Origin: a phage
Strand: one strand, 5' to 3'
Assembly (NCBI GenBank): GCA_017822615.1
Contig: GCA_017822615.1_4530.1
Length of the DNA: 64,000 bases
Each line of letters starts with the position of its first letter. Within the stretch, counting starts at the first letter, position 1. The position numbers and the translations under genes were made by a program. The notes beneath the pieces are model-generated. The model worked only from the letters and a program-made list of their open reading frames with translations, did not search any database and was not told where the DNA came from. Of this stretch, positions 33,438 through 41,768 are shown piece after piece.

Positions 33438-35216
33438 GTGTCGCACATTATAACTAAATATGGATTTGATGTTGATCTTAGCAAGGAAGGGCATACAGGT
33501 TGTCCGCGCTGCATGAAAAATGGCAAGGATCGCTCTCGTAATAACCTGATGGTTTATGGATTAGATTCTAATGGAGAGCATAAAGGTGCTAAGTGCTTTG
33601 CGTGTGAATACACTATTCCTAGCGTAGAATGGTTACGAGAAAATGGTGAAGTTTTAGAAGAAGAGGAGGAGATTGTGGGTTCGGAATTTAATAAACAGAT
33701 TCATCGTAAAATTGTTCAAGAAACATCAACCAACCCACGTGGTTATCGAGGCATTAAAGAAAAAGTTTCATCTTTCTATGGTGTTCGTTATGAATACCGT
33801 CAGGAAGGGGATCAGATGGTAGTAGAAAGTTGTTTATATCCAACTACTATCGGTAAAGAATTGGTTGGTTTTAAGCGTCGTATTCATCCTAAAGATTTCA
33901 GTAAACCTATTGGTCAAGTAGGTAAAGATGTAGATCTTTTTGGACAAATTCGTTTTGCAGACCGTTCTCATACTGTGGTAATTACAGGTGGTGAACACGA
34001 TGCTCTGGCAGCTTATCAAATGCTGTCTGAAAACTTGGACAACAAATATGAACTTCCAGCAGTAGTTAGTGGCACAACTGGTGAAACCAGTATGTATAAA
34101 CAAGTTCAGGCACAATACCCTTTCTTTGAAAAATTTAAGAAGATTATTGTTTGCATGGATAATGACAAAGCAGGTAATGAGGCATTTGAAAATATTGTTA
34201 AGGTGCTGCCTCGTAACAAAGTCTACCGTATGCAGATGGATCTTAAGGATGCCAATCAGTATCTGGAAGAAGGTCGTGCAAAAGATTTCGTAAAAGCTTT
34301 TTGGAGTGCTCGTCTATACACCCCAGCAGGTGTTTATGCTTCTAATGTCTTGTATGAAGCTGCATTAGAATGCTTGGAATCCAAGATGATTACCTTGCCT
34401 CCTTTTATGCGTGTTGCTGCAAATATGCTGGGTGGTGGTTTAGTAGAGGAAGAGATTACAGTCATCCTGGCAAAGACCAGTATCGGTAAAACTTTGATGG
34501 TGAACGAGATCACCAAACATATTATTGTTGCGCACCCAGAACATACCCTAGGTATTCTGTCCTTGGAAGCAACTTATAAGAAATATTCTCGTAACCTGTT
34601 GTCCTCGTTCCTGCATATTCCTCTACACAGGAAAACACCGGAAGAGAAATTTCAAATCTTGGAAGAGAATAAAGAAAAAATCCTAGATTTTTACGAAAGA
34701 GAAGATGGATCACCACGTTTTTATGTGTGTGATGATCGTGGAGCAGATGTGGAGTCTATCAAAGAAAAAGTTTTGGAGATGATCATCTATTTTGGAGTAA
34801 CAATTCTTGTTATCGACCCTTATTCTGATTTGCTTTCTGGTATGGATGTTCAAGCCCAGGAAGAGTTAGCAACATGGTTGAAGCGCATCATGAAAGAGTA
34901 TGCTATAACTATTATCGTCATCTCACACGTTAAGAAATCGGCTAATGGTGGCAATGAACACTTAACAGAGGACGATGCAATGGGTAGTAGTTTCTTGGCT
35001 AAAGGTGCTGGTATTACCTTGGCTTTGGAACGAGATAAAGCCGCTGAAGACCCTGTAGAACGCAATACGACTCATTGCTTTATCCTAAAAAACCGTGAGT
35101 TCTCGGAAACTGGTCCGGCAGGGCAGTTTTACTATGACATTAGAACTGCAACTCTGCATGACAAAGAGCAGTATTTCAACAATCCTGCTAATTTGCCTAC
35201 GGATAGCAACTACTAA
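33438..35216 (+). CDS. bifunctional primase-helicase (Zn ribbon + TOPRIM + DnaB-like helicase)
   Basis: GTG start; CPRC...CFAC zinc ribbon, TOPRIM acidic motifs (GGEHD, CMDNDKAGNEA), Walker A AKTSIGKT, Walker B VLVIDPYSD. Confidence 0.8.
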   Translation: MSHIITKYGFDVDLSKEGHTGCPRCMKNGKDRSRNNLMVYGLDSNGEHKGAKCFACEYTIPSVEWLRENGEVLEEEEEIVGSEFNKQIHRKIVQETSTNPRGYRGIKEKVSSFYGVRYEYRQEGDQMVVESCLYPTTIGKELVGFKRRIHPKDFSKPIGQVGKDVDLFGQIRFADRSHTVVITGGEHDALAAYQMLSENLDNKYELPAVVSGTTGETSMYKQVQAQYPFFEKFKKIIVCMDNDKAGNEAFENIVKVLPRNKVYRMQMDLKDANQYLEEGRAKDFVKAFWSARLYTPAGVYASNVLYEAALECLESKMITLPPFMRVAANMLGGGLVEEEITVILAKTSIGKTLMVNEITKHIIVAHPEHTLGILSLEATYKKYSRNLLSSFLHIPLHRKTPEEKFQILEENKEKILDFYEREDGSPRFYVCDDRGADVESIKEKVLEMIIYFGVTILVIDPYSDLLSGMDVQAQEELATWLKRIMKEYAITIIVISHVKKSANGGNEHLTEDDAMGSSFLAKGAGITLALERDKAAEDPVERNTTHCFILKNREFSETGPAGQFYYDIRTATLHDKEQYFNNPANLPTDSNY

Positions 35217-35749: not shown

Positions 35750-36544
35750 TTGAGCAAGTTGAACACACTTGATCAATATTACACTAACCCCGCTTATGCG
35801 GGGTTCTTATGTGATAAGATCAAAGAAATTTTTGGAGAGGAAGCTAACTACGTAGAACCATCTGCGGGAGAAGGAGCTTTCTCTTCTTGTTTTAAAAACA
35901 TAACTTCTTTTGATATTGACCCTAAGTTTGAAGATTGTATTGAGGCAGATTTTTTAGCTCAATCTGTTGAGTCTGTTGGTAGTGTAACTGCTTTTGTCGG
36001 TAATCCTCCGTTTGGAAAAAATGCTAGTCTTGCCATTAAGTTCTTTAACCATTGTGCTGAAATGTTGGATAACGAAGGTGGTATTTGTTTTATCTTGCCT
36101 CGCACATTTCAAAAAATCTTTTTTGCACACAAACTAAATCCCCACATGCATCTTCTTTACGAAGAAGAATGTCCAAAAGGATCTTTTATTCTTCATGGAG
36201 AACCTTGGGATGTTCCTTGTGTATTCCAGATATGGATTAAACGCAACGAGAAGCGTTCTCCCGTTGTTTTAGGAGAGAATCGACTATTCGTATTAGGTAA
36301 CAGTAAAGACTACGATATAGCCGTTAGGAGAGCGGGAGCAAGTGCAGGTAAAGTGTTATCAGAAGAAGATTCTTTATCTGAAGCATCTACCTATTTTTTA
36401 AAAGCCTTGACTTCTGATCTTAAAACGCGTATCATTGAGGCTTACCCGTTACTTAAAGCTGAAGCTAGTAAAACTGCGGGAGTAAGAAGTTTAAGTTTAA
36501 AAGAACTTCAGTGGGTTCTGGAGAACATTAGAAAGGAGGAATAG
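35750..36544 (+). CDS. N6-adenine DNA methyltransferase (orphan)
   Basis: TTG start; SAM-binding EPSAGEGAF and catalytic NPPFG motif; no adjacent nuclease. Confidence 0.65.
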   Translation: MSKLNTLDQYYTNPAYAGFLCDKIKEIFGEEANYVEPSAGEGAFSSCFKNITSFDIDPKFEDCIEADFLAQSVESVGSVTAFVGNPPFGKNASLAIKFFNHCAEMLDNEGGICFILPRTFQKIFFAHKLNPHMHLLYEEECPKGSFILHGEPWDVPCVFQIWIKRNEKRSPVVLGENRLFVLGNSKDYDIAVRRAGASAGKVLSEEDSLSEASTYFLKALTSDLKTRIIEAYPLLKAEASKTAGVRSLSLKELQWVLENIRKEE

Positions 36545-39141
36545 TGAGTAAGTTTACATGGGATATTGAAGCAAACGGATTGTTGAATAATGACACTATT
36601 GATTATTTAGCTAGTCCTTATCGTCTCAAAGACACATTTCAAATGCACTGTATTGTCTTAGAGAACCATGAAACAGGAGAAATAGTAGCTTTCCACGATG
36701 GCCCTAAATACATCTTTGATGGGCGTCCTTATGAAGAGTCAGATGGTAAATACACATATGTTCTTAAAGAGTATGTGGCGCAAGATTACACGCATTTTCA
36801 ACTAAAAGATTTCCCAGACTTTATTAATCATGAAGGTTATTTTAAAGACAAGCCTGAATATCTGGTTGAAATGGCTGTGGCTCACAACGGTATCAACTAC
36901 GACTGGTTGGCTACAAAACTGTTTTATGGATTAGATTACAGTGTTAAATATAATACGTGGGGCAAAAATAAGGTAAAACTTATTGACTCCTTGATTTTGA
37001 GTAAAGTGTTAAACCCAGATCGAAAGATTGAGGGCAAATCAGGACATAGCTTGGCAGCACTTTCTCGAAAAGCAGGTGGTGATGTAAAAATAGATTTCCG
37101 TAAAGAGATTCCAGAAGAAGATCGATTTAAGACTTTTGCTGCGGATATGCTTTATTACTGTATCTATGACAACAAAGCCAATACTAGCGTATATAACTAC
37201 CTTATGGAAGAATGGGGTGATTATGATAAATGGGAAGGTCCATTTGAACTTGAACAACGTGTAGCAGACATTATCACACGCCAAGAACACCGTGGGTTTG
37301 CTTTTAACATGAAGCAAGCAGAAGAGAACCTTGCTTTTTTGGATGCAGAAATGGAGCGTCTTCGTTTACTCGTTGAGCCTATTTTGCCACCTAAACCAGC
37401 AACAAAAGGCTATCTTAAGGCTTTTATTCCACCTAAGTTGCAAATTAAAAAGAACTTAGAGCCAACTAACCATATGATCAATTTTGCTAAGAAACATGAT
37501 GGTCATTTGGAAGAGAGGGATGGCGATTGGTGGTTAGTTATGTTGGGGAAAGAGTGGAAACTGCCAGTTGCAGCAGATGAACCTCTATGTGATCCTAACA
37601 TCCCTGCAACATTGAACGATACAACCCATATTAAAAACTGGCTTGTAGGATTAGGTTGGGTACCGTCTGAATATAAAGATAAAGACTTAACTCTTAAATC
37701 TGGCACCAAGATTAAAAAGAGCGAGGAAGAACTTCAGAAAGGTATTCGAGCTTACGTTGAGCAAACTCTATCTTCTAATTTTTGTCAGGATCGTTGTGAT
37801 CATCTGGAGTGCACACCGGAAACCTTGGAAAGGAAGATTCAAGAGCGTATAGCAAAAGGTAAAGGTCGCGGTCTTAAAGTATTGACTAACCCATGTTTTA
37901 CCAAAGGTCAGGAAAAAGAAATCTGTCCTAACCTGCAAGCTTTGGGTGAGAAATTTCCTTATGCTACTCAGATTGTAGAATACTTAACGTATAAGCATCG
38001 TAGGAACTCTATTTTAGGTGGCGGTGCTGATTGGGAAGAAGATGAAGAAGATCAAGAATACGATAAAGGTTTCTTAGCCGCAGTAAGGGCGGATGGGCGT
38101 ATTCCTACACCAGCCGCTACATGTGATGCTGCAACCTCTCGTATGAAGCATAGGTCTGTAGCCAATATCCCTCGTGTCACATCTTTGTTTGGATGGGAGA
38201 TGCGTAACTTGTTTGGTGTAGAAGTTCCTAAATACTTCCAGATCGGTTATGACTTCGACTCTTTGGAAGCAAAGATTGAGTCGCATTATTGTTGGCGCTA
38301 CGAACCGGAGCCTCATGAATACTGTAACGCTCTCTTGTTAGAGAAGCCTAACGATGTTCATACCATGATGGCAAAACGTATTACAGATACTATTGGGCGT
38401 AAGTTTGAACGTAGTCCGGCGAAATCTGTTAAATACGGGATCACTTATGGTGCACAAGCAGACAAGGTTGCTAAAACAATTGGTAGCGATAAATACACAG
38501 GGCAACTGGTGTTCGATGCTTTCTGGGAAGCTGCATTCCCACTGGCGCGTCTTAAAGAACGTTTAAACGATTTCTGGGTTAAGACTGGTAAACAGTATGT
38601 TTTGGGTATTGACGGTCGTAAGGTTCCTACTCGTTCTGCTCACGCGATTCTTAACTCTCTGTTCCAAAGTGGTGGGGTTATCTGTGCTAAACGTGCAATG
38701 GTTATTTATGACGACATGATCGAAGAAGAAGGGCTAAGTGTTGACTTCTTTAAAGATGACTGGAAGAATAAAGACTTCGTGCAACAAATGATTGCATATC
38801 ACGATGAAGCCCAGCTTGAAGTTTCTCGTAACCTTGTAGAATTCAAATGGTTTTCACCTGAATCATTAGGTTGGAAGAAAGTAGACGATCCTGAAGAACA
38901 AAAGAAAATTGATAAAGAATGCCTTGCTAAAGTTGAAGAATGGAAGCATAATAAGGAAAAAGAGACAGGGCAAATTTGGGCTAACATTCATGAATCTCCC
39001 AAAGGTGGATGGTTTACAGCCTATAGTCGGGCAGGTGAACTTGCTGCTTTAGCTGTTACTAAGGCTGGAGAATTTTACAATCTTAATGTTCAGCTTACTG
39101 CCGGATATGATGTGGGTAACTCCTGGGCGTCCTGTCACTAG
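36544..39141 (+). CDS. DNA polymerase, family A, with 3'-5' exonuclease domain
   Basis: GTG start; Exo I WDIEANGL; polymerase motif B KSVKYGITYGA and motif C YHDEAQLEV. Confidence 0.85.
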   Translation: MSKFTWDIEANGLLNNDTIDYLASPYRLKDTFQMHCIVLENHETGEIVAFHDGPKYIFDGRPYEESDGKYTYVLKEYVAQDYTHFQLKDFPDFINHEGYFKDKPEYLVEMAVAHNGINYDWLATKLFYGLDYSVKYNTWGKNKVKLIDSLILSKVLNPDRKIEGKSGHSLAALSRKAGGDVKIDFRKEIPEEDRFKTFAADMLYYCIYDNKANTSVYNYLMEEWGDYDKWEGPFELEQRVADIITRQEHRGFAFNMKQAEENLAFLDAEMERLRLLVEPILPPKPATKGYLKAFIPPKLQIKKNLEPTNHMINFAKKHDGHLEERDGDWWLVMLGKEWKLPVAADEPLCDPNIPATLNDTTHIKNWLVGLGWVPSEYKDKDLTLKSGTKIKKSEEELQKGIRAYVEQTLSSNFCQDRCDHLECTPETLERKIQERIAKGKGRGLKVLTNPCFTKGQEKEICPNLQALGEKFPYATQIVEYLTYKHRRNSILGGGADWEEDEEDQEYDKGFLAAVRADGRIPTPAATCDAATSRMKHRSVANIPRVTSLFGWEMRNLFGVEVPKYFQIGYDFDSLEAKIESHYCWRYEPEPHEYCNALLLEKPNDVHTMMAKRITDTIGRKFERSPAKSVKYGITYGAQADKVAKTIGSDKYTGQLVFDAFWEAAFPLARLKERLNDFWVKTGKQYVLGIDGRKVPTRSAHAILNSLFQSGGVICAKRAMVIYDDMIEEEGLSVDFFKDDWKNKDFVQQMIAYHDEAQLEVSRNLVEFKWFSPESLGWKKVDDPEEQKKIDKECLAKVEEWKHNKEKETGQIWANIHESPKGGWFTAYSRAGELAALAVTKAGEFYNLNVQLTAGYDVGNSWASCH

Positions 39142-39558: not shown

Positions 39559-39777
39559 ATGCGTAAATTAGTGAGCTTTAATGTTTCAATTCTTGTTGAT
39601 GAACAAAATGAAGATGTTATTAAAGGTCTTGCAAATAAGATTGCAGGCGGAATGACGGAAGCTGAAGTGTGGGAAGAATGTGCTCGACTTTATGAGGAAG
39701 GTGTTATTGAGGTCTTGGGGGATGAGATTAATATGGACGATGTTGTAAAAGTAACTGTGGAGCGTATCCATGACTAA
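39559..39777 (+). CDS. hypothetical protein
   Basis: 72 aa, AAGGAG RBS. Confidence 0.45.
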   Translation: MRKLVSFNVSILVDEQNEDVIKGLANKIAGGMTEAEVWEECARLYEEGVIEVLGDEINMDDVVKVTVERIHD

Positions 39778-40363
39778 ATCAAAACAAATCAATATTGCCA
39801 AAGAAATTCTTACCGTATTAAAGATTGCTGATCCTAATTCTGTCTTGGCTGGCGGCGCTGTTCGTGATTGGCGTATTCTTGATATTGCTGGACGTGATCT
39901 GGATTTTTACACGTCTCTTCCTGCACATCGATCAGAAGAGCAAATACAAGAATTGATTGCATCTGCTTTGATGGGAACTAATGTTCGTAAATTAGGAAAC
40001 AAAGAAGCTTCGGATAACTACGAGGGTGTTACTGGTCTTAAACACGTTTTTGAGTTTGAACGTGATGGTCAGCTTTGCAACCTTATGATTATGGAACCAA
40101 GCGTAATGACAACCTTTCTAAATGAGTTTGATCTGTCCATCTGCCAGGCTGCATTTGATGGGAAGGATTGTTATTACTCTAAAGATTTTGAAACAACTTT
40201 GGAAACAGGGATCTGCTTCTTGCACAAAGATGTTAGAGAAGATGCCAAACACGTTATTAAAATTGCTACACGTTTCCCATATCTTCGTTTTGTGAAAGAG
40301 GTTAAGGTTCCACGTCCACCTCAAGTAGATACCAGATTGGAAGAAGATGATATTCCTTGGTAA
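39770..40363 (+). CDS. hypothetical protein with acidic SSB-like C-terminal tip (EEDDIPW)
   Basis: 197 aa, last residues LEEDDIPW. Confidence 0.45.
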   Translation: MTKSKQINIAKEILTVLKIADPNSVLAGGAVRDWRILDIAGRDLDFYTSLPAHRSEEQIQELIASALMGTNVRKLGNKEASDNYEGVTGLKHVFEFERDGQLCNLMIMEPSVMTTFLNEFDLSICQAAFDGKDCYYSKDFETTLETGICFLHKDVREDAKHVIKIATRFPYLRFVKEVKVPRPPQVDTRLEEDDIPW

Positions 40364-40408: not shown

Positions 40409-40801
40409 ATGACTGAACGTTCTAAGATAGCTGTTGAAACTGTTTATGGAAACTACACCAGTTTGACACTAGTTGAGAAAAATGTTGTAGGTCTTGACAA
40501 CTCTTTTTATTTTCAAATTTTGGTTATTCAAGGTGGAAACAAGAAGCTAACTGCTCGTGTCGAAACATCTGAAATAATTGAAACCACTGTTACAAACAAA
40601 GAATTCATTTCACTGCAAGATACAATCCGAAACGTTATAGACGAAGAAGGCAAAGCTGCCACAATTAAACTCGGAGGTTTCCCAGTGCAAATAGTTCATT
40701 TTCCTAATGGTGAAATTGGAGTTGGAATAGGTAAAGGTAAATACCTGTTAGAGCAAGATGATATGGAAAGACTCCGCTCTTTCTGTGCAAAATTAATGTA
40801 A
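40409..40801 (+). CDS. hypothetical protein
   Basis: 130 aa. Confidence 0.45.
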   Translation: MTERSKIAVETVYGNYTSLTLVEKNVVGLDNSFYFQILVIQGGNKKLTARVETSEIIETTVTNKEFISLQDTIRNVIDEEGKAATIKLGGFPVQIVHFPNGEIGVGIGKGKYLLEQDDMERLRSFCAKLM

Positions 40802-40817
40802 TGTAGAGGAGATAATA

Positions 40818-41705
40818 ATGTCCGTAATTAATACTGAAACTGATCGTAAAGGCAAAACCGTAACTTATGCAACTGGTATCGTAGACTACGTTAAACTGGA
40901 TAAATTCGCTGAACCTAAAACTTTTCATTGGGAAGGAAAAACGATTGTTTCAACTCACCGAGCCTCTCTTGTTCTGAAAGAGAAAGGTGCTAAACCAGAT
41001 GAGAAAGGTGTTTGGATTTCTCTTGGTGACATTGAACTGAAAGAAGGTTATGAAAACCTGCAAGTCAAAGAAGGTGATAATTGGATCACTATTGAAAAAG
41101 GTGTAGAAGTAAGTATTGATATTGATCGCGTTGATAATAAAGGCGGTAAAACTTACTACAATACTAAAAAATCTCGTATTACAGTATTGTCTACCGATGG
41201 TGTTCAGAAGTCTAACAAATCTTCTGGCAATAAAGGTTCCAACGATGCTGCTCCTAAGCAGTCCTATAAAAAACGTGATACTGTAGGTCTGGAAACTGGT
41301 CACGCAGTAAATGGTGCACTGGAACTGATTCGTAATGGTGTTAAAGGTGATGCTTTCGATATCGCTGGGGTTGTTCAATCTGCAACTGTCACGCTGAAAT
41401 CGGAAATTGCTGAATCTCGTGGCGTTGATATTAATGATTATGATCTTGGGGCATCTGTTGGTCACGCTATTCTCAATGCTTGTAAAGACCATACCATTAA
41501 GACTGTATCTGTAGAAGATCTGATTGACTCTGCTCGTAAAGTTCTAGCTCTGTCTGATAAAGTTGCTGCTGCCATTCGTGGTTCCGCAGAACAACCTAAG
41601 AAAGAAGAGAAGAAAGAAGTTAAGAAACCTGAACCACAACCAGAACCAACTCCAAGCAATCAAGAAGAACCTCCAATGGACTTCGATGATGATATTCCGT
41701 TCTGA
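40818..41705 (+). CDS. ssb: single-stranded DNA-binding protein with E. coli SSB-type C-terminal tip
   Basis: 295 aa; flexible G/S/K-rich linker and terminal PPMDFDDDIPF, which matches the C-terminus of E. coli SSB as I recall it; the N-terminal domain does not resemble E. coli SSB. Confidence 0.6.
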   Translation: MSVINTETDRKGKTVTYATGIVDYVKLDKFAEPKTFHWEGKTIVSTHRASLVLKEKGAKPDEKGVWISLGDIELKEGYENLQVKEGDNWITIEKGVEVSIDIDRVDNKGGKTYYNTKKSRITVLSTDGVQKSNKSSGNKGSNDAAPKQSYKKRDTVGLETGHAVNGALELIRNGVKGDAFDIAGVVQSATVTLKSEIAESRGVDINDYDLGASVGHAILNACKDHTIKTVSVEDLIDSARKVLALSDKVAAAIRGSAEQPKKEEKKEVKKPEPQPEPTPSNQEEPPMDFDDDIPF

Positions 41706-41730: not shown

Positions 41731-41768
41731 ATAAAAGAAAAGGGAACCTTTGCGGGTTCCCTTTTTAT
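41731..41768. terminator. bidirectional terminator at convergent junction
   Basis: GGGAACC-tttgcg-GGTTCCC flanked by A-run upstream and TTTTTATT downstream; between stop of ssb (+) and stop of 41768..44443 (-). Confidence 0.65.

Follow-up and report, generated by a model that had tools for sequence, protein, structure and literature searches.

Gene neighbourhood of the locus

The window, a stretch of 64,000 nucleotides, shares 99.9% identity with Escherichia phage ESCO13, a Phapecoctavirus of the Stephanstirmvirinae. It contains a co-directional gene unit in the order primase/helicase, a 143-aa ORF, a methyltransferase-like ORF, a family-A DNA polymerase (PolA), three small ORFs, a nucleotidyltransferase (NTase), a 130-aa protein and an SSB-like protein, and this order is kept in Phapecoctavirus and Justusliebigvirus. 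The primase/helicase (592 aa; 33438–35216, + strand), annotated as DNA primase/helicase in ESCO13, ends ...NLPTDSNY and carries no acidic tail. The methyltransferase-like ORF (264 aa; 35750–36544), which begins with a TTG start and matches phrog_799 (E=1e-10), immediately precedes the polymerase gene and adjoins it. A weak Pfam match to Eco57I and an NPPFG motif also give this ORF a resemblance to DNA methyltransferases. The polymerase itself (865 aa; 36544–39141, + strand) is recognised by Pfam DNA_pol_A (E=8e-14) and by phrog_17 (E=2e-111).

The NTase gene occupies positions 39770–40363 of the + strand, stop codon included, and shares its first 8 nt with the preceding ORF. It is followed by the 130-aa protein (40409–40801, + strand), which matches phrog_16560 (E=1e-76), has no match in Pfam or NCBIfam, and holds this position between the NTase and SSB genes in each of the four Stephanstirmvirinae relatives compared (phiWec188, phiWec181, FKP3 and phi92). 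The C-terminus of this small protein is conserved (...GKYLLE...LREFC.K.M). Downstream of the SSB-like gene, a bidirectional terminator hairpin at 41738–41765, with an 11-bp stem and A/T runs on both sides, closes the polymerase–NTase–SSB unit against a convergent tail gene; related records carry a "Terminator" annotation at the corresponding position.

No tRNA genes are present in the window. ESCO13 has 10 tRNA genes and an RNA ligase, located about 40 kb from the NTase, and all 10 tRNA genes encode the 3'-CCA. Further annotations in ESCO13 (L131 19719–20850) include Sir2-like, Ter (tellurite-resistance) and DprA-like proteins, several glycosyltransferases and an RNA ligase/phosphoesterase pair, possibly representing defence or counter-defence and RNA-repair functions.

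The SSB-like protein, two genes downstream of the NTase, is 295 aa long (40818–41705, + strand) and carries the tip MDFDDDIPF (41676–41702). Its C-terminus reads ...PPMDFDDDIPF before the stop codon, or, over a longer stretch, ...PSNQEEPPMDFDDDIPF, and the tip matches that of E. coli SSB. Over its C-terminal ~40 aa the protein resembles SSB of the E. coli type (NCBIfam PRK09010, E=7e-5), this stretch being almost the same as the tail of E. coli SSB. Alignment to E. coli and enterobacterial SSB chains (PDB 1eqq and 7f2n) covers the last ~14 residues, and several GenBank records annotate the protein as SSB. For the N-terminal ~250 aa, searches of Pfam, PHROGs and NCBIfam return phrog_4477, a family of unknown function, as the sole match, with no OB-fold or SSB family. 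As judged from its sequence, the protein may represent a new SSB class with an acquired host-like tail. Its homolog in FKP3 likewise stops at the tip (...DFDDDIPF). In phi92, the frame of the SSB homolog (gene 156; L004:5026–5973) continues beyond the tip to ...VQDFDDDIPFAPIGLQYGRNFLHCF, leaving DDDIPF internal and devoid of the free carboxylate that an SSB tip requires; this overrun may reflect a sequencing error, the loss of a stop codon or a genuine extension of 15 aa.

A head-only class-II nucleotidyltransferase

The NTase is a class-II (CCA-adding/poly(A)-polymerase-type), head-only enzyme of 197 aa in which motif A is intact. Its translation ends ...PRPPQVDTRLEEDDIPW before the stop codon, the longer C-terminal stretch being ...VPRPPQVDTRLEEDDIPW. 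A globular core (residues 1–176; 39770–40297, + strand) consists of the head domain followed by a short helical region. Two PHROGs "nucleotidyltransferase" families match the protein (phrog_10174, E=3e-63; phrog_1614, E=3e-11), and the Pfam PolyA_pol head domain PF01743 scores 15.5 bits (E=0.023), below its gathering threshold of 23.

Catalytic motif A is made up of GGAVRD (residues 28–33) and DLD (residues 43–45), encoded at 39851–39904 on the + strand, and is seen in the translation, the family alignment and the profile. Motif A is defined by G[SG] followed ~10–13 residues on by a DxD that supplies the metal-binding carboxylates, and the GGAVRD...DLD of the NTase has this arrangement. Across a family alignment of 94 sequences, residues G28, G29, R32, W34, D43 and D45 do not vary. 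In a profile search of the PDB, the matches of which are weak, the family profile places this stretch on motif A of CCA-adding enzymes; a PDB search with the single NTase sequence returned noise only. Ribose and base selection in CCA-adding enzymes involves motif B (consensus RRDFTIN, with RRD) and motif D (consensus EDxxR). Two stretches of the NTase, FDLSIC at residues 120–125 and EDAKH at residues 157–161, appear by eye similar to these motifs, yet differ from them.

An AF2 model built from the 94-sequence alignment has a pLDDT of 89, compared with 64 for a run with 11 sequences. The model shows the head-domain fold and is structurally closest to CCA-adding enzymes and poly(A) polymerase. 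These targets are 342–517 aa long, and the NTase covers only their N-terminal ~40–50% (TM normalised to target 0.24–0.32). The NTase has no tRNA-binding neck, body or tail domains and, at 197 aa, compares with ~350–450 aa for a tRNA CCA-adding enzyme. The protein therefore shares its fold and motif A with class-II CCA-adding enzymes and bacterial poly(A) polymerase (PF01743 head), but differs from them in these missing domains, in its sub-threshold Pfam score and, as read by eye, in its candidates for motifs B and D. PDB 2la3, a free-standing head-domain protein of ~190 aa, is head-only in the same way.

Small proteins of this kind form a large family. An exhaustive profile search recovers 1,046 representative clusters, 335 of them at E≤1e-10, and nearly all are free-standing proteins of 175–220 aa. 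The NTase body is apparently an active enzyme rather than a bare peptide. Because this body is an NTase and not an ssDNA-binding domain (OB-fold or equivalent), the protein is not an SSB, merely the bearer of an SSB-like tip.

The C-terminal tip and its conservation

The initial annotation reported a 197-aa protein ending LEEDDIPW, likened this ending to the tip of SSB, and considered the protein unrelated to the SSB two genes downstream. Translation of ORF 39770–40363 (+ strand) bears out the ending, and the two tip bearers are indeed unrelated, one being a nucleotidyltransferase and the other SSB-like. The likeness to the SSB tip also holds, with an acidic run and a hydrophobic-Pro-aromatic triplet at the extreme C-terminus that ends in a free carboxylate. 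The tip EDDIPW (residues 192–197; 40343–40360, + strand) is followed by a TAA stop codon at 40361–40363, and W197 is the terminal residue of the tail peptide ...VDTRLEEDDIPW. Between core and tip lies a linker (residues 177–191, EVKVPRPPQVDTRLE; 40298–40342, + strand) that is variable and, as its conservation, indels and falling pLDDT suggest, probably disordered. The tail of the AF2 model has no secondary structure, and pLDDT in the linker falls to 56.

The C-terminus of bacterial SSB (SSB-Ct, ...DDDIPF) docks SSB-interacting proteins. Like the NTase tail, it combines an acidic run with an Ile-Pro-aromatic ending at the extreme C-terminus, set behind a variable, disordered linker. The NTase tip, in contrast, sits on an enzyme rather than on an ssDNA-binding domain and ends in Trp rather than Phe, and there is one tip per NTase polypeptide as against several on a tetrameric bacterial SSB such as that of E. 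coli.

Endings of the form [DE][DE][ILVM]P[FWY] are rare, with a composition-based chance expectation of ~1.2e-5 per C-terminus. The window has 588 stop-to-stop frames of 40 aa or more, and such a C-terminus is found only on the NTase and the SSB-like protein; across the whole ESCO13 genome (149.8 kb) these two are again the only genuine bearers.

The tip is not confined to one isolate. Close relatives found by tblastn all align through residue 197, and the tip is kept in every Phapecoctavirus homolog examined, including those at 59–66% identity. In a set of nine Phapecoctavirus-type NTases (59–100% identity) the ending is D[DE]IPW throughout, with DSFPW in one. The two Asp codons of the tip differ synonymously between isolates (GAT GAT versus GAC GAC), leaving the peptide unchanged. 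The ~15 residues before the tip, by comparison, vary in both sequence and length (PRPPQVDTRLE, RPDPQADNFEDFQ, QRRTQDKALPKFEDTD, CPAPQADSN). Across the Phapecoctavirus homologs at 59–100% identity, mean column conservation is 0.85 for the tip, 0.80 for the core and 0.53, with indels, for the linker. A conserved tip beside a drifting linker fits a flexible linker that carries a selected terminal peptide, which is the architecture of SSB tails. The comparison of homologs thus indicates that the NTase tail is under purifying selection, and the tail looks functional.

NTase tails in Justusliebigvirus and the wider family

Conservation of the tail in homologs had been put forward as a check on the initial reading. 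It is found in Phapecoctavirus at 59–100% identity and breaks down in Justusliebigvirus, where the NTases have other endings: ...DSFNNEEFKI in phi92, ...DDAWDDDKI in FKP3, and elsewhere ...DEAWDECF and ...DEAWDNDNF. Hosts, gene order and the DDDIPF tip of the SSB are as in Phapecoctavirus. The exact NTase tip is therefore genus-specific and under a different constraint from the SSB tip, and the occurrence of different NTase tails in phages of the same hosts argues against a fixed host target. No co-variation of the NTase and SSB tips is seen between phiWec188 and phiWec181, and the support for it from the metagenomic contigs L007 and L009 is anecdotal.

In a neighbour-joining tree of the wider family, 38 of the 241 core-containing NTase sequences, distributed over several separate clades, have acidic tails with an aromatic residue at or near the end. 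The remaining ~84% have no such tail, so the NTase enzyme has no general need of one. IPW tips appear at four places in the tree, namely in Phapecoctavirus, P0016 (...PDDIPW), P0123 (...SNDIPW) and P0228 (...VDNIPW). Sister sequences differ in their tips, as with P0131 (...SDDDF) beside P0123 and P0229 (...VEIPF) beside P0228. Searches for the DIPW-tipped homologs P0016 and P0123 found no close cultured relatives and no match in the viral contig collection.

Tailed NTase homologs also adjoin a family-A polymerase in three unrelated metagenomic contigs (L005, L007 and L009). The primase-helicase of L007 ends ...EESIEDEF and is T7 gp4-like in this respect. In L009, PolA is immediately preceded by the NTase (...DDLDEGLF) and followed by a protein of 242 aa that ends ...DEGEDTPW.

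Trp-ended tips in other viruses

The ending [DE]DDIPW followed by a stop codon is frequent in viral contigs, with at least 120 loci in IMG/VR. Clustering of the 117 recovered ORFs with the tip masked yields 26 unrelated clusters among the matches listed. Five SSB classes in PHROGs, again among the matches listed, end in this motif: phrog_44 (OB-fold, 22 members), phrog_9002/378, phrog_743, phrog_6015 and the gp2.5-like phrog_112. Since phage SSB families end in DDIPW, the Trp-ended tip is a genuine variant of the SSB tip. Trp-ended tips are thus widespread in phage SSBs, and a full-text literature search found no mention of this. Literature searches for DDIPW as a motif and for SSB-Ct-like motifs on other proteins returned no relevant paper.

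DNA helicases of 573–601 aa (phrog_16, E=3e-104; L026 and L035) end ...TEDDIPW. A second tip-bearing ORF lies within the fetched flanks at just two of the 120 loci listed (L095 and the Phapecoctavirus-like L129), so many of the unannotated DDIPW bearers may be the unrecognised SSB of their own phage. The view that many non-SSB families carry DDIPW was tempered, and the firm non-SSB bearers are the helicase and the NTase only.

Several further bearers were noted. The largest DDIPW cluster among the matches listed has 25 members of ~197–220 aa that end ...FPNAKVTRVVDG.GN.NIEDDIPW and have no PHROG match. The motif is also present on a 155-aa family with Cys-rich N-termini (phrog_21342) and on a 240-aa family (phrog_862). 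In L095 (4247 bp), a 161-aa SSB-like frame ends ...FEDMDDDIPW and a 257-aa frame ends ...ALELDEIPF.

A proposed docking role for the tail and its alternatives

By analogy with bacterial SSB, the tail may be an SSB-tip-type docking peptide that brings the NTase to tip-recognising sites, our preferred reading, to which we assign a probability of about 0.5. In place of the domains that would hold tRNA, the enzyme carries a ~15-residue flexible linker and EDDIPW with its free carboxylate. The tip would plug into SSB-tip sites, where a hydrophobic pocket would take the terminal aromatic residue and a basic rim the carboxylate and the Asp residues, and would so recruit the NTase to ssDNA and replication-fork complexes during phage DNA replication. 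The likeliest partner would be phage-encoded, for example the adjacent family-A polymerase, the 130-aa protein (a candidate partner of either tip-bearing neighbour) or another replisome component. Because the SSB tip is constant across both genera and the NTase tip differs, a co-evolving, phage-encoded partner would be favoured over fixed host SSB partners. Candidate substrates would be nucleic-acid 3' ends at forks, or the target of a Gad2-like anti-defence reaction. Binding of the tip to any partner, the identity of that partner and the substrate are points we infer. The rarity of the tip, the conserved and unstructured tail, its recurrence across clades, its identity with SSB tips and the location of the gene in the PolA/SSB transcription unit count in favour of docking. 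Counting against it are the genus-specific tip, the ~84% of family members that have no such tail, the untailed primase-helicase of this phage, the lack of co-variation between NTase and SSB tips in phiWec188 and phiWec181, and the terminal Trp in place of Phe.

Phage T7 offers a comparable arrangement. T7-like tails end ...DGDF. The T7 DNA polymerase gp5 has basic patches to which the helicase gp4 and the SSB gp2.5 bind through acidic C-terminal tails (PMC12593628, PMC12339929), and papers cited in the latter describe the terminal Phe of gp2.5 as essential. As in the present locus, a replication protein that is not an SSB (gp4) shares an acidic, aromatic-ended tail with the phage SSB in a PolA-based module, and related contigs pair a tailed primase-helicase with NTase homologs. 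Unlike in T7, the tail bearer is here an NTase with no known replisome role, and its motif is E. coli-SSB-like (IPW) rather than T7-like. The primase-helicase of the window has no such tail, and a T7-style tail code is therefore not demonstrated for its replisome.

What would be new is an SSB/T7-style tail code on an unexpected enzyme class. We know of no previous link between this class of NTase and replisomes, and docking would extend the T7 principle, in which replisome proteins share the SSB tail code, to E. coli-type IPF/IPW tips. Phages very often encode small head-only NTases of class II. To our knowledge no function has been shown for them, and the only experimental handles are toxicity and, in the case of Gad2, activity against Gabija. 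A conserved docking-type tip on one lineage would offer a cheap experimental route to a partner and a site of action.

The initial annotation suggested instead that the protein might compete for SSB-tip binding pockets. As such a decoy, the tail would fill the pockets of host nucleases, helicases and restart proteins and block their recruitment to SSB-coated DNA, with the enzyme in a secondary role. We consider this doubtful. The NTase tip does have DDIP, an aromatic residue and a free carboxylate in common with the host tip, a terminal Trp occurs on real SSB tips, and both Gp22 of Klebsiella phage fHe-Kpn01 (PMC7291057) and Gad2 (bioRxiv 10.1101/2023.05.01.538930) are toxic on expression. However, the phage SSB bears a host-identical tip and presumably needs those same pockets, a single tip on a monomer would be expected to compete poorly with multivalent SSB, the strictly conserved catalytic motifs would be unnecessary for a pure decoy, and Justusliebigvirus infects the same hosts with a different NTase tip. 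The data are explained no less well by recruitment to tip-docking sites than by competition. A chance resemblance to SSB, in a non-functional extension, is highly improbable: most family members lack a tail, as this explanation would have it, but the expectation is ~1e-5 per C-terminus, the tip persists at 59–100% identity beside a drifting linker, and acidic tails recur in separate clades. Taken at the sequence level, these features indicate that the resemblance is not chance.

Two other explanations dispense with an external docking site. Autoinhibitory fold-back has been proposed for the acidic tails of SSB, T7 gp2.5 and T4 gp32, and since acidic tails of ssDNA-binding proteins are established to act in this way, the NTase tail could similarly fold back on the nucleic-acid or NTP surface of its own enzyme as an autoinhibitory mimic, within reach of a flexible linker that in the model appears long enough. 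Such intramolecular regulation is rather improbable: the NTase core is itself acidic (net charge -4, pI 5.6) and the conserved feature is a specific Ile-Pro-Trp-COOH ending rather than charge alone, both of which make fold-back less attractive, and the identical motif is an SSB tip in many phages. Equally hard to favour is an ordinary tRNA CCA-adding or repair enzyme, or a poly(A) polymerase, with an incidental tail. GenBank annotations ("putative tRNA nucleotidyl transferase / poly(A) polymerase"), the best fold matches and the 10 tRNA genes and RNA ligase of the phage point in this direction; against it, the 197-aa NTase lacks tRNA-binding body and tail domains, falls below the Pfam PolyA_pol threshold (15.5 versus 23 bits), and belongs to a DNA-replication unit that lies ~40 kb away from the genes for tRNA and RNA ligase, and its tail is apparently under purifying selection. 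Canonical CCA addition to tRNA sits poorly with a head-only protein encoded among replication genes, and CCA addition for maturation of phage tRNAs was rejected because 10 of 10 tRNA genes already encode CCA.

Relation to Gad2

Gad2 is a phage anti-Gabija protein of ~400 aa with a predicted NTase domain that is toxic on expression; its mechanism is not given in the report (bioRxiv 10.1101/2023.05.01.538930), and a literature search for a newer account of the mechanism found nothing relevant. Precomputed matches to PF26128 (Gad2) are present on many NTase homologs, including P0009 (61% identity), P0161 and P0162. No such match is recorded for the P0001 cluster, which is 99% identical to the window NTase, and our Pfam scan, which gave no PF26128 match even on homologs with precomputed ones, does not discriminate here. 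A tblastn search with P0077, a 400-aa family member, for Gad2 of the SPbeta group returned no Bacillus phage matches and no direct sequence bridge. Gad2 resembles the window protein in being a phage-encoded NTase, and toxicity is known for Gad2 and for a related small phage NTase. It differs in its length (~400 versus 197 aa) and in its occurrence in Bacillus SPbeta-group phages. The link to Gad2 is a lead, suggested by these profile matches, rather than demonstrated membership.

Following this lead, the tip could act as an address label by which a Gad2-like NTase reaches SSB-tip-docking proteins (host nucleases, helicases, restart factors or SSB-sensing defence proteins), where it would nucleotidylate them or cap DNA or RNA 3' ends. 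Phages would then be reusing the SSB tip as a portable tag on enzymes of several classes, including NTases, helicases and perhaps further members of the 26 DDIPW families. We regard this as unlikely; if true, SSB-tip mimicry would target an anti-defence enzyme. The related small NTase mentioned above, Gp22 of Klebsiella phage fHe-Kpn01, is a 182-aa protein toxic in E. coli (PMC7291057), and its motif spacing is the same as that of the window NTase.
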